From the NCBI GenBank assembly GCA_965263255.1, contig CBDHHA010000008.1:807006-871005 (forward strand): a DNA stretch of 64,000 bases, written 5' to 3'. The notes beneath the pieces are model-generated. The model had not been told where the DNA came from. It did not search any database and saw only the letters and a list, made by a program, of their open reading frames with translations. The position numbers and the translations under genes are program-made. Positions 40,277-51,350 of this stretch are shown here, piece by piece; positions within the stretch are counted from its first letter, which is position 1, and the number at the start of each line of letters is the position of its first letter. Origin of the DNA: Bryobacterales bacterium. Its GTDB lineage: Bacteria; Acidobacteriota; Terriglobia; Bryobacterales; UBA6623.

Positions 40277-40618
40277 CTAGGCGCTATGCATCGCCCATAC
40301 CAGCAGGCCGACTGCCGCCGCCATGGCGGCCAGCAGTGCTAGCGCGCCAGTCTGCCATCTAGGCAGCACGAGCGGCTCTCGGGACAGATGGGCATGCAAG
40401 CGCCTCCGTAGGCTGGGCCTGGTGTCCGGGTAGACTCCGGCCCGTAGGGCTTCCAGGCCCTCCCGGTTCGTGATCATGATCGTGCAGGCGTTGCTGCCCG
40501 ACAAGGTCTCGCGCAGGCGCTTGCGGACGCCGGAAGGGCATTCATCGAGCGACCCGAACACCTCCGGGTCCTCGCGCGAGCCGATGATGATGCTGGAGGT
40601 CTTGAGCACCCACTTCAT
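40277..40618 (-). CDS. hypothetical membrane-anchored protein
   Basis: ATGA overlap with the LysR stop; C-terminal hydrophobic helix. Confidence 0.65.
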   Translation of the reverse strand: MKWVLKTSSIIIGSREDPEVFGSLDECPSGVRKRLRETLSGSNACTIMITNREGLEALRAGVYPDTRPSLRRRLHAHLSREPLVLPRWQTGALALLAAMAAAVGLLVWAMHSA

Positions 40619-41535
40619 GATGCTTTGCGTGCCGTAGCCAGTCCCAGGCCGGTCTCCGCGGCGAACTCGCCGACGAGCTGTATGAATCCTAGCGCAGCCC
40701 GCGAGAGTGCCTTGTCCTTACGATAAATCAAGCCGATCGTGCGGATCATCGGGAGGGGGCGCAAGCGGATCGCGCAGAGCCGCCCAGCCTGCAGCTCCTC
40801 GCGCGCATTCGTGACTGCCATGAATGTTACCCCGAGATTGGCTTCGGTGAAACGCTTTTGCATCTCGCTCGACTCGAGCTCCATGGAAACCTTGAGCTTG
40901 TCCTCGTACGGATCCAGGAATTCATTGATCCGCGTGCGGGTCCGACCGGACTTGGGCAACAGAAGCTCCTGTTCCGCGATCTCCCCGGCCTCGACGGCCG
41001 CCTGGCCTGCGAGGTGATGCTTGGGCGATGTCAGCAACTGTATCTCGTCTGAGTAGACCTGCACGACCTCGAGACGCTTCTCCTGCAACGGGAGCTGCGT
41101 GATGCCGAAGTCGACGGAATTGTCGAGGACGGACTCGATCGTTCGCGCGCCGTACGACCTCACGACCTGGATCTGGACTTTCGGGAAGCGGCCCTTGTAA
41201 CGGGCGAACACCGCGGGAAGCACGTGCACGCACGTCGCCTCATTGGCGGCAATCGTCATCTCCCCCCGCGGGACCCGGTCGAGCTCGCGGACCGCGTCCA
41301 CGCCCTGGCGCTTCAGATCGAGGATGCCGCGGGCGTACTCGGCGAATGTCCGGCCGGCGATCGTGAGGGTGATGCGGCTGCCGAACCTGTCGAACAGCTG
41401 CGTTCCCAACTCCTGCTCGATCTGCCGGATCTGGGCGCTGATGGCCGGCTGCGTTCGAAAGCAGGTCTTGGCGGCCTTCGAGAAGCTGTTCAGTCGGACG
41501 ATTTCGAGGAACGTGTGTAGCTGATCGAAGTCCAC
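40615..41535 (-). CDS. LysR family transcriptional regulator
   Basis: SFSKAAKTCFRTQPAISAQIRQIEQELGTQLFDR HTH. Confidence 0.93.
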   Translation of the reverse strand: MDFDQLHTFLEIVRLNSFSKAAKTCFRTQPAISAQIRQIEQELGTQLFDRFGSRITLTIAGRTFAEYARGILDLKRQGVDAVRELDRVPRGEMTIAANEATCVHVLPAVFARYKGRFPKVQIQVVRSYGARTIESVLDNSVDFGITQLPLQEKRLEVVQVYSDEIQLLTSPKHHLAGQAAVEAGEIAEQELLLPKSGRTRTRINEFLDPYEDKLKVSMELESSEMQKRFTEANLGVTFMAVTNAREELQAGRLCAIRLRPLPMIRTIGLIYRKDKALSRAALGFIQLVGEFAAETGLGLATARKAS

Positions 41536-41635
41536 GCCCAGCCGTCCTCGCTCGCACCCGCCAGTCTGCGCTTGCATGGACGGCACGATGCGTTACCAAT
41601 ACTTTACGACAACCGGGGCGCGGCCCGCTCCGAAC

Positions 41636-43791
41636 CAGGCAAATTCAAAGATTGCCTTGGACTGGGATTCGATGGGGTAAGAGCAGCTGACGGGAAGAGG
41701 GCAGCGGAGATGCGCGGCTCTTTGAGGTGGGCCGGCGCTGTTGCGGATTCCGGGCGCGATGGCGGCGACACAGTGCCGGGCCCGGTACTGCACTAGCGAG
41801 GCGCAGGTCGGCCGGCCCCGGCCTCCGCACCGGGGGCGGCAGGTTGGGGATCGAGTGGGTGCTAGCTGCCCGTCAGGACGTCGACAGCCCGCCAGCCGCA
41901 ACGGTACAGGCTCCGGGTCGTGCGCTGGATGTTCCTCGCGCCCAGCAGCCGCAGGATGCTCAGCGCCAGGTTCGTCAGGGCTGCCAGCACGCGGGGCAGC
42001 GCGCCCTTGCGCACCCGGCTGGCATCCTCGCGCCAGGTCGTGTCGCGTACGTAGTGGACGCCGTTCTCGACCGCGCCCCAGTAGCCTCGCACGAGCCGCT
42101 CGAGCCGCTCGGGCCCGGCCAGCTCCGGCGGCAGGCTGGCCACGAAGTAGGCGGTCTCGGTCCGCCGCTCGCGCCCGTCCTTCTTGAACACCACCTCGCG
42201 GTGGATCCGGAACACGTGCGTCACGCCCGGGAAGGCGAGCCATTCGGGACAGTCCGAGATGTCCTCGGAGACCTGGATCGTGCGGGTCTCGATGCGACCG
42301 TGTCCCGGGCGGAAGACGCGCGTGCCGGACTCGCTCCAGCGGTAGTCCTCGCTGACCTGCTCCAGCAGCGTCGGCTGGTTGCCCTTGAGGCTGAACACGT
42401 AGTGCATCCCGAGCTCGCCGATCAACTCCGCGGTCTCGTGCTGGGTGTGCAGCGCGTCGGCGAACACGCACAGGCCCGGCCGCTGGATCGTGCCCAGCAG
42501 CTTGCGCAGCGCCGCGGCCTCGGCATCCTCCTTCTTGCCGGTGTAGCTGATCTGCCCGATCACGCAGCGCGAGTCGATGTCGACCGCCGACATCTGCTGC
42601 ACCGGCGGCTCGTTGCGGACCGCGCCCTGCTCGTCCTGGTCGCGGTCGTAGGAGCCGCGCAGGGTCTTGCCATCGAGCGCCAGCGACTCGGCTTCGGGAA
42701 TCCATAGCGCCATCCATGCGCCCGTGATTCGCTCGATCTCCTCCTCGTCGAGCGGCTTGAGGATGTAATGCAGGGTCGAGATGCCGGGAGCGGTCACCGT
42801 GCCACTGCCCGGCATGGCCCGGAAGCCGAGCCGTCGCAGCAAATCCTCGCTGAGATCCCGGCCGAAGTCGGAGATGTCGGTCAGCGTGCTGGCGCCCGCC
42901 AGCCGCGCGGCGATCACCAGCGTCAGCACGCTCGCCAGGCTGTAGCGCTTGCCGCGCGCCTTGCGCGGGTCGGGCAGCTGCTCGAGATACTCGCGCAGCG
43001 AGACCATCTGAGCGGGGGTGAGTTGCATCCTGTGCCTCCAGGGGACCCACTCGGGCCGCGCAGCGGCGGCGGCGAGCTGACGGCGGGCGTCGGGGTGCAG
43101 GGGATAGACCAGCGCGCGCTTGGGCCGGCCGTGGGCCTGGTAGCCGATGGCCCCGCCGCGCACCCGGCCGAAGCCGCGCGTGGAGCCGACATCGATCCAG
43201 TTCGCCGCCCGGTAGCAGGTGCCGGCGAAGAGGCCGGAATCGACGAACGTCTCGGCGAGCAGCAGGTCGTGGCCATGGATCGCGAGCCAGTCGGCGCGCA
43301 GGCGGCGCAGGCTCAGGCCGAGCACGCGCGAGGCGAGGTTCGGAACGCCGGCGGCGCCCGGCAACAAGACGTAGCGCGAGTTGTTGGCGACGAGGAACAG
43401 CCGCTGGCGCCGCTGCAGGCTTGACCAGCCGATCCATTGGTCGCGGGCGGCGCAATGCAGCGCCGCGGCGTGCCAGCCGAGCAAGGCCAGCCAGCGCTCG
43501 CCGAGCACGGCGACATGGCGCAGGCGCCGGCCACACAGGTTGCGGAACCCGAGATAGTGGTGCGCCCGGACGAGTTCGTTCCAGCGCTGCTCCTCGGCCT
43601 TGCGAACGGGTCGCACCTGCACGTCGAGCAACCGGACCGGGCCCTCTTGCATCGACCGACTTATCGCATATCCGGACCCGGTTTGTCCAGTCCGGAGTCA
43701 GGCCCTCCGCCCTCCTGCTCGTAACCTCCTCTCTGCCAGTGCCTTCTCAATCCTCTCGTAGCCCCTCCCGGGCGAACTTTGAAATGCCCTG
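41636..43791 (-). mobile_element. ISAs1-family insertion sequence, complete
   Basis: Imperfect terminal IRs: CAGGCAAATTCAAAGATTGCC (41636-41656) vs revcomp CAGGGCATTTCAAAGTTCGCC (43771-43791), 16/21 match. Flanked by 9-bp direct repeat GCTCCGAAC at 41627-41635 and 43792-43800. Confidence 0.9.
41862..43652 (-). CDS. ISAs1 transposase with N-terminal DUF4338 (DruA-like) domain
   Basis: N-term HHYLG...RDQWIGWS...NNSRY...NLASRVL...LLAETFVD...GTCYRAANW...T.G; C-term LPDPR, LDGKTLRGS, ADALHTQ, LKGNQPTL, GHGRIETR, ENGVHYVRD..WRED. Confidence 0.9.
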   Translation of the reverse strand: MQEGPVRLLDVQVRPVRKAEEQRWNELVRAHHYLGFRNLCGRRLRHVAVLGERWLALLGWHAAALHCAARDQWIGWSSLQRRQRLFLVANNSRYVLLPGAAGVPNLASRVLGLSLRRLRADWLAIHGHDLLLAETFVDSGLFAGTCYRAANWIDVGSTRGFGRVRGGAIGYQAHGRPKRALVYPLHPDARRQLAAAAARPEWVPWRHRMQLTPAQMVSLREYLEQLPDPRKARGKRYSLASVLTLVIAARLAGASTLTDISDFGRDLSEDLLRRLGFRAMPGSGTVTAPGISTLHYILKPLDEEEIERITGAWMALWIPEAESLALDGKTLRGSYDRDQDEQGAVRNEPPVQQMSAVDIDSRCVIGQISYTGKKEDAEAAALRKLLGTIQRPGLCVFADALHTQHETAELIGELGMHYVFSLKGNQPTLLEQVSEDYRWSESGTRVFRPGHGRIETRTIQVSEDISDCPEWLAFPGVTHVFRIHREVVFKKDGRERRTETAYFVASLPPELAGPERLERLVRGYWGAVENGVHYVRDTTWREDASRVRKGALPRVLAALTNLALSILRLLGARNIQRTTRSLYRCGWRAVDVLTGS

Positions 43792-43852
43792 GCTCCGAAC
43801 GGGGCGCGGCCAGGCCCTGGAGGCGGGCGATAGAATGGGGCTTGCCACGGCC

Positions 43853-44851
43853 ATGAAGCCTAGGATTTTCTCCGCGATGCAGCCCACGGGAGAGCTGCAC
43901 ATCGGCAACTACCTCGGAGCCTTGCGCAACTGGGCGCAGATCCAATACGACTACCAGCCGATCTTCTGCATCGTCGACCTGCATGCCATAACCGTCCCGC
44001 AGGATCCCCGCCGGCTCCGCGAGAGCTGCGAGCAGGTTGCGGCTCTTTACCTTGCGGCGGGCCTGGATCCGAAGCACTCCGCCGTGTTCGTGCAATCCCA
44101 GGTTCCGGCCCACGTCGAGCTCGCCTGGATCTTCACCTGCACGGTGCCGTATGGCTGGCTCGGCCGGATGACGCAGTTCAAGGCAAAGATCCAGCAAGCC
44201 GAGTCCGGCCAGGATCCGGTCGGCACGGGACTGTTCGTGTACCCGGTGCTCATGGCGGCGGACATCCTGCTGTACCAGGCCAAGGTGGTCCCGGTTGGCG
44301 ACGACCAGTCCCAGCACATCGAGCTGACCCGGAACATAGCCCAGCGATTCAACAGCCTGTACGGCAAGACTTTCGTCGTTCCCGAAACCAAGCTGCCCTC
44401 GGTCGGTGCCCGCATCATGGGCCTCGATGACCCGACCAAGAAGATGAGCAAGTCGACCGACTCGCCCAATCACTCCATCAGCCTGCTCGATCCCCCGGGA
44501 CGCGTCCGCAAGATCATCGGAAGGGCGGTCACGGATTCCCAGCCGGCTGTCAACTGGGAAGCCCCGGGTGCCGGCGTCGCCAACCTGCTGACCATCTACC
44601 AGGCCTTCAGCAGCTCGACGGACGAGGAAATGGAGGCCCGGTTCGCGGGAATGCGTTACGGAGACCTGAAGAAGGAAGTGAGCGAGATGGTCAGCGCGAG
44701 ACTCGAGCCTATCCAGCAGCGTTATGCGGAACTGATGGAGGACCGCTCCTACCTGCGAGGCGTGCTTCGGGACAGCGCCGAGCGCGTGGCCCCGATCGCT
44801 GAAGCCACCGTGCGCCGGGCCAAGGAGCGGACCGGCCTGTATTCCGCCTGA
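43853..44851 (+). CDS. trpS: tryptophan--tRNA ligase
   Basis: QPTGELHIGNYLG, YPVLMAADIL, KMSKS. Confidence 0.97.
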   Translation: MKPRIFSAMQPTGELHIGNYLGALRNWAQIQYDYQPIFCIVDLHAITVPQDPRRLRESCEQVAALYLAAGLDPKHSAVFVQSQVPAHVELAWIFTCTVPYGWLGRMTQFKAKIQQAESGQDPVGTGLFVYPVLMAADILLYQAKVVPVGDDQSQHIELTRNIAQRFNSLYGKTFVVPETKLPSVGARIMGLDDPTKKMSKSTDSPNHSISLLDPPGRVRKIIGRAVTDSQPAVNWEAPGAGVANLLTIYQAFSSSTDEEMEARFAGMRYGDLKKEVSEMVSARLEPIQQRYAELMEDRSYLRGVLRDSAERVAPIAEATVRRAKERTGLYSA

Positions 44852-51062: not shown

Positions 51063-51350
51063 TTAGCTGACGTGGACCGTCACGCACAGACGAACGTTCA
51101 GGGCAGCGATCATCCTCATTAGCCGGTCGAGCGTTAAGCGGTTGAGGTCGGCATTCCGGATGCGCGAGAAGTCCGCTGCGGCGAAGGCGGTCAAATTCGA
51201 CGCCTCGCGTACGCTTAACCCGCGCCCGTCGAGTTCCGCGATGATCCTGGCCGCGACGATGGCCTTGGCCTGCTTCAGATCGGCATCCGGGTCTCCGAGG
51301 TCGCGAAAGACATTGCCGCTCCCTTCCGCTAGTTCCAACTCGTCGCTCAT
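51063..51350 (-). CDS. XRE/HTH antitoxin (partner type of Gp49/RelE-like toxins)
   Basis: GSGNVFRDLG, AADFSRIRNADL..TLDRL. Confidence 0.82.
   Translation of the reverse strand: MSDELELAEGSGNVFRDLGDPDADLKQAKAIVAARIIAELDGRGLSVREASNLTAFAAADFSRIRNADLNRLTLDRLMRMIAALNVRLCVTVHVS

Follow-up and report, generated by a model that had tools for sequence, protein, structure and literature searches.

The ISAs1-type insertion sequence (IS) that occupies positions 41636-43791 of the 64-kb stretch of DNA analyzed here (the window) is an intact, recently inserted element of 2,156 bp, and its single 596-aa ORF joins a transposase to a front domain of the PF14236 (DUF4338) family, the modeled fold of which is closest to that of Mom of phage Mu. 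We tentatively propose that this GNAT domain marks adenines near the element, thereby shielding the element from restriction in new hosts. Specifically, the front domain would move an aminoacyl group from a charged tRNA to adenines in DNA close to the element. Since it lacks the DNA-binding insertion that is essential in Mom, it would be steered to element DNA by the transposase's helical, putatively end-binding PF13808 domain, which may replace that insertion, and the marked 2-kb element would then survive restriction during horizontal transfer. Judging from the fold model and the conserved residues, the front domain is very probably an active enzyme. If so, analogy with Mom makes dsDNA its probable substrate and aminoacyl-tRNA its probable donor; given that substrate and donor, the analogy somewhat favors escape from restriction, rather than transposition control, as the benefit.

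The inverted ends of the element agree at 12/15 and 15/20 positions, a 9-bp target duplication borders them, and the fusion ORF is free of stops (Table 1); the element showed neither a sigma-70 promoter nor a terminator consensus. A 9-bp repeat combined with inverted ends matching at 12/15 positions or better, 1.5-3 kb apart, occurs as one pair in the window, and 20 random 64-kb stretches of the same genome, taken as a control, gave five in total. The element sits between divergent genes for a LysR-family regulator and a tRNA synthetase, the latter read as trpS from its motifs. In genomes of the same genus (e.g., G402, G404, and G406), the lysR and trpS matches lie ~110-130 bp apart, in contrast to the element-filled gap seen here. 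Likewise, run X1, which may be the source sample, contains a contig joint (41626 to 43792) that omits the element and one repeat copy exactly at the duplication, the short side of this joint being only 21 letters at 90% likeness; filled junctions are present in the same run. Two runs from other studies carry the insertion as well, X2 showing both junctions and X3 one. An earlier note on this DNA had described an intact and recently inserted IS, and both descriptions hold, as does its account of the motifs HHYLG, RDQWIGWS, NLASRVL, ETFVD, and GTCYRAANW, all of which are present.

Table 1. Positions, in the window, of the parts of the element and of the host genes on either side of it.
Feature	Position	Strand	Remarks
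Flanking LysR-family regulator, host gene outside element	40615..41586	-	PF00126 + PF03466
Target site duplication, lysR-side copy	41627..41635		9 bp, identical to 43792-43800; X1 empty-site joint keeps one copy
Terminal inverted repeat, ORF-downstream end	41636..41655		15/20 vs other end; relatives have related CAGG ends
Element non-coding 3' region	41656..41861	-	Sequence; this end also present by itself at two further sites in the genome
Fusion ORF, 596 aa, Mom-like domain + ISAs1 transposase	41862..43652	-	AlphaFold model, mean pLDDT 90.6
DDE catalytic domain, aa 324-564	41961..42683	-	PF01609, 40 bits; D327, D399, E529 as putative triad
Helical transposase-associated domain, aa 221-314	42711..42992	-	PF13808, 65.2 bits; all-helical in model; putative end binding
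PF14236 (DUF4338) domain, aa 1-200, modeled as a GNAT fold most like that of phage Mu Mom	43053..43652	-	H32, Y33, R93, S108, D138, Y147
Terminal inverted repeat, ORF-upstream end	43772..43791		
Target site duplication, trpS-side copy	43792..43800		9 bp
Flanking class I (W/Y) tRNA synthetase, host gene outside element	43853..44851	+	PF00579, 252 bits

A check of copy number, which the earlier note had suggested, found one full copy in the genome, together with two downstream-end fragments and several degraded or differently partnered copies of the domain. The fragments correspond to the non-coding downstream end (41636-41878), which stands alone, without the other end, at G000:C8 421645-421886 and 2537650-2537823; these matches span 243 bp at 96% identity and 176 bp at 83%, respectively. 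In one relative, the same lysR-trpS gap holds ~3 kb of other DNA (L189; G403:C3 3136741-3139878), hinting that the gap is an insertion hotspot between divergent promoters. Elsewhere in the window, a 1,396-aa ORF (54942-59132, plus strand) was read by eye as a trypsin-like protease with NHL-like and Sel1-like repeats and includes a stretch of lower GC content at 56-57 kb, and a small helix-turn-helix ORF (51063-51350, minus strand) resembles, again by eye, the antitoxin of a toxin-antitoxin pair.

By its transposase and its ends, the element belongs to ISAs1. The NCBIfam model for ISAs1 transposases, NF033564, matches the protein at 168.6 bits (cut-off 70) and is covered from position 1 to 314 of 314, and Pfam places PF14236 at aa 12-164 (90.6 bits, cut-off 27), followed by PF13808 and PF01609, both above cut-off. 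These HMM searches bear out the DUF4338 and transposase-associated domains named in the earlier note. The residues of the putative DDE triad are kept almost without exception among 93 fusions (D327 in 93, D399 in 92, and E529 in 93), and the top fold match of the full-length model is the Tn5 transposase; we infer that the transposase would act as an ordinary DDE enzyme. Ordinary ISAs1 members are ~1.2-1.4 kb long and encode only a transposase of ~370 aa, with target duplications that are typically ~8-10 bp. The lineage described here has the same short inverted ends and duplications of 9-11 bp, whereas its elements measure 2.1-2.2 kb and the transposase carries ~210 extra N-terminal residues.

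The earlier note had taken this N-terminal domain for a defense module related to Druantia, and it is in this respect that its reading is unsupported. DruA of type I Druantia (PF14236; PADLOC PDLC00002) does belong to the same Pfam family, and the RDxWIGW region is common to both; DUF4338 is also fused to defense proteins elsewhere, according to a passage of PMC10853773. In contrast, the PADLOC DruA model gives the 596-aa protein 12.1 bits over 50 residues, whereas two proteins of the long form score 655 and 410 bits. The three flanking proteins have no PADLOC match, so dru neighbors are absent, and the best match to the DruE1 model in the genome reaches 162 bits, compared with 1,981 for a real DruE, and lies more than 590 kb away. 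Within the phylum, PF14236 was present in 37/401 genomes sampled, and the 30 loci fetched from this sample comprised five of a long form and 25 of a short, IS-type form. The long DruA-type proteins, of ~390-440 aa, match the whole Pfam model at 270-412 bits and the IS-type domain HMM at only 23-29 bits, and all five lack counterparts of the HY pair, R111, S124, and D149 of Mom, residues whose counterparts are conserved in the fusions. One of them, the 655-bit protein, stands beside DruD and DruE. The short form, by Pfam, has a fused or adjacent transposase domain in 20 of the 24 loci scanned and none in the other four. Judged from these sequences, PF14236 lumps two subfamilies, a long DruA-type and a short IS-type, and membership of the element's domain in Druantia is ruled out by the DruA score, the lack of dru genes nearby, and the missing Mom-type residues of long DruA. 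It is also very unlikely that the domain rides on the element as passenger cargo that protects the host from phage; the shared family and motif lend this idea some support, and the in-frame fusion, which ties expression of the domain to that of the transposase, adds to the differences just listed. Two further occurrences of the family may be mentioned here. At L185:5714-9852, a gene of the long DruA type has NurA-like and HerA-like genes after it in place of druB-E, possibly forming a different defense system, and part of the Phold preprint reports DruA-like proteins in six Synechococcus phages.

The closest match of the front domain was found among protein folds. The domain was modeled with a pLDDT of 88.4, and Mom (8bv8) ranked first in two programs, namely Foldseek against the PDB (E 6.4e-8, TM 0.63) and VIA-align against 48,161 chains (Z 15.4, rmsd 3.7, 168 residues aligned), where the next GNAT reached Z 12.8. 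A PDB sequence search with the full alignment gave just three weak, unrelated matches, so the likeness to Mom was found by fold searches only. Sequence comparisons with Mom were nonetheless colinear, in that a profile-profile alignment (hhalign) of the family with Mom ran over the domain, at E 0.0067 and a probability of 5.7%. In both this alignment and one made with MAFFT, a gap falls at the helix-turn-helix insertion of Mom (aa 175-209), which Mom needs for activity. The 596-aa protein itself has no match to the Pfam Mom family (PF25680) at E<=1 and a weak one to phrog_1384 (E 0.0098); its relative P0318 exceeds the Pfam Mom cut-off (34.6 vs 27.1 bits). The domain profile also retrieved three distant viral loci, both scanned ones being Pfam Mom proteins, cross-profile scores to Mom rose to ~11 bits as against 2.3 or less for reversed controls, and one Atlas cluster carried an 11% Mom annotation.

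Mom transfers glycine from Gly-tRNA to the N6 position of adenine in dsDNA, and H58, Y59, R111, S124, D149, R151, and Y159 have been named as its active-site residues (in part of PMC13219725). At 16-17% identity, six of the seven align with the front domain, where H32, Y33, R93, S108, D138, and Y147 are kept in 92, 93, 92, 92, 90, and 91 of the 93 fusions, respectively, and all six together in 87; these equivalences come from sequence alignments, of which MAFFT aligned R93 with R111 and hhalign misplaced that column. The seventh, R151, is essential in Mom and corresponds to position 141, which is Leu in the present protein and Arg in 75/93 fusions. The loss is clade-wide, affecting 16/44 close relatives compared with 2/49 distant ones, and an extra arginine, Arg165, is found in 44/44 close relatives and 2/49 distant ones; Arg165 may compensate for the lost counterpart. 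The two proteins differ further in that the RDxWIGW stretch is present here, and in that the domain is fused to a transposase, whereas Mom is the product of a late phage gene. Taken as a whole, the fold and the residues suggest that the front domain likely works like Mom, though it fails the sequence test of the Mom family.

Two alternatives take the same comparison in other directions. The domain could be an active GNAT with a substrate other than DNA (the transposase, a host nuclease or nucleoid protein, or tRNA), with a regulatory role or that of a mild addiction toxin. Such a role would suit the absence of both the R151 counterpart and the DNA-binding insertion, as well as the many ordinary acetyltransferases that score Z 11-12.8; moreover, the substrate of a GNAT is unpredictable from its fold, as noted in PMC13219725, and DUF4338 is treated in a passage of PMC10853773 as a co-effector of the GNAT type with proteins as possible targets. 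We consider it unlikely, in view of the 2.6 Z units by which Mom stands above all other GNATs, the near invariance of six Mom residues, and the strongly basic character of the domain (30 K+R vs 13 D+E). The other alternative is a non-catalytic scaffold that binds nucleic acid or dimerizes and so aids transpososome assembly. Mom is a tight dimer (PMC13219725, in part), and the counterpart of its R151 is lost in the close relatives counted above; against this, conservation centers on the putative active-site residues, Arg165 may make good the loss, and in many cases the domain is encoded by a gene of its own, all of which render a scaffold highly improbable.

Mom-like proteins also occur in other phage settings. 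The large viral contigs L133 (3-3639) and L136 (137-3657) each carry two PF14236-like genes, one long and DruA-like, the other short, Mom-like, and still in possession of the insertion; the gene pairs flank a T4-like clamp-loader-like gene and a nucleotide kinase, and the set is possibly a phage DNA-modification cluster. In another example, Mom is described as fused to nucleases in jumbo phages in part of PMC7824862, which refers back to Iyer et al. 2009 and 2013.

The fusion itself is an established lineage. All three domains are present in 113/120 of the top homologues (the best 120 of 2,125 matches). Of 190 pairs, which are not independent of one another, the 30 closest give the domain a dN/dS of 0.06-0.32, and in 181 the transposase is less conserved than the domain. 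These comparisons indicate that the PF14236 domain is under purifying selection; a chance fusion, the doubt raised in the earlier note, is ruled out by this selection and by the three-domain homologues. Within the genus, 26/31 genomes have matches at E<=1e-20, several of them with dozens of full-length copies, and inverted ends with 9-11-bp duplications were found in 18/40 relatives tested, after removal of two poly-G cases, with 20 lacking duplication or ends; the duplications differ between the many copies that relatives carry. On a wider scale, the domain profile matched 9,781 clusters at E<=0.001. A plasmid search returned two records, both annotated as ISAs1 transposases, and a tblastn search of annotated phages with two queries found nothing.

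Damaged copies are also informative. The domain is matched at least 150 times in genome G431, where one subfamily has, among the copies listed, 22 with a stop within the domain as against nine intact. This nonsense variant (loci L198-L205) falls on the Y147 codon in each of the seven stop copies checked, of which five have their own 10-bp duplication. These copies were probably mobilized in trans, and for this reason an intact domain in cis would appear to be unneeded for spread within a genome, and strict action in cis is doubtful. Related copies in G406 (L208 and L209) have in common an in-frame deletion of ~40 aa in the Mom-like domain, together with stops, and one of them keeps its ends and a 10-bp duplication. 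Many relatives of ~320-325 aa (P0128, P0137, P0170, P0200, and others) consist of PF14236 and PF13808 without the DDE domain; a programmed frameshift as the source of such ~324-aa proteins is unsupported by the three G401 copies checked, all of which read in one frame.

The domain is by no means confined to ISAs1, a point that the earlier note overlooked along with the relationship to Mom. It adjoins, or is fused to, transposases of the IS66, IS4/IS50 (often fused, ~770 aa), DDE_5, UPF0236, DUF4277, and DUF772 types, of which we take DDE_5 to be IS701-like and UPF0236 to be ISLre2-like, the names IS66 and IS4/IS50 being assigned on the same assumption. Repeated copies place the domain gene inside units of 2.5-2.6 kb with inverted ends. 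In the genome that carries the present element, an IS66-type transposase is immediately preceded by a PF14236 gene of 305 aa that stands alone (G000:C8 ~3,230,800-3,233,600; L182:1303-4080). In place of the adjoining helical domain, stand-alone forms carry their own N-terminal extension of ~110 aa, for which there was no PDB match and for which Pfam gave weak leads only (PaaX in 4/25). On a tree of 75 domains, from which L154 and the five proteins of the long DruA type were left out, a single clade (100/99) unites the 22 ISAs1 fusions, IS66 partners (L155 being called IS66 by its layout) require 11 changes, at least six of them forced by strong branches, and IS4 partners require four. Because the partners are intermixed on this tree, the sequences point to repeated exchange of the domain between IS families. 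A precedent is seen in ISTni1, of the ISKra4 family, which Guerillot et al. 2014 list with a "DUF4338" additional ORF (PMC3942029, Table S1); there the domain is a separate gene with a transposase of a different family, and the main text of that paper has no mention of the DUF, its function, or a link to Mom. The literature searched yielded no Mom-like domain on insertion sequences beyond this supplementary row, with Iyer et al. 2009 and 2013, two IS reviews, ISfinder, and one PMC3942029 supplement file lying outside its scope; Iyer et al. 2009 and 2013 may mention transposon-linked Mom.

This distribution bears on what the marking might be for. Dam methylation times or limits the transposition of IS10 and IS50, and the domain could by the same token modify adenines in or near the ends of its own element to time or limit transposition, the modification serving either to mark the ends or to confer target immunity; that the domain could regulate transposition had also been suggested in the earlier note. 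The enzymatic evidence for such a role is the same as for escape from restriction; the direct fusion to a putative end-binding domain, without the DNA-binding insertion of Mom, would fit it well, and high copy numbers would favor self-limitation. Conversely, the domain travels between IS families whose ends are unrelated, in many cases as a separate gene bearing an N-terminal extension of its own, and transposition in most members of these families takes place without it, so that control of transposition through the ends is, in our estimation, improbable.

Carriage by several IS families, and the intermixing among them, would suit a function that depends on no particular transposase or end sequence, and a generic benefit is most simply inferred because the module swaps among elements with unrelated ends. 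Mom shields Mu DNA from >20 restriction enzymes, and its overexpression is lethal to E. coli (10.1101/861617, in part). Resistance to many restriction enzymes being the known benefit of Mom, local marking against restriction is the reading that we favor. Mom's lethality when overexpressed, set beside the number of domain matches in G431, implies that any activity must be very low or local. Counting against this reading are the weak sequence likeness to Mom, Leu141, the missing insertion, and the spread of the G431 stop copies.

More broadly, and with still more reserve, one may suppose that unrelated IS families have recruited a tRNA-dependent enzyme that hypermodifies DNA adenines, and that in the ISAs1 lineage the transposase aims this enzyme at the element, giving a self-armouring transposon; this would imply an unrecognized modified base in chromosomes across many environmental bacteria. 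Whatever its function, the "DruA" label on PF14236 can mislead counts of defense systems, as illustrated by the 25/30 fetched loci of the 401-genome phylum sample that are of the short IS-type. If the domain is active, a DNA-modifying enzyme would be built into a transposase and would be common to several IS families, and IS biology would gain an epigenetic or anti-restriction layer. Under the same condition, tRNA-dependent DNA hypermodification would extend from phage Mu to cellular chromosomes, and the fusion would represent a naturally targeted DNA-labelling enzyme.
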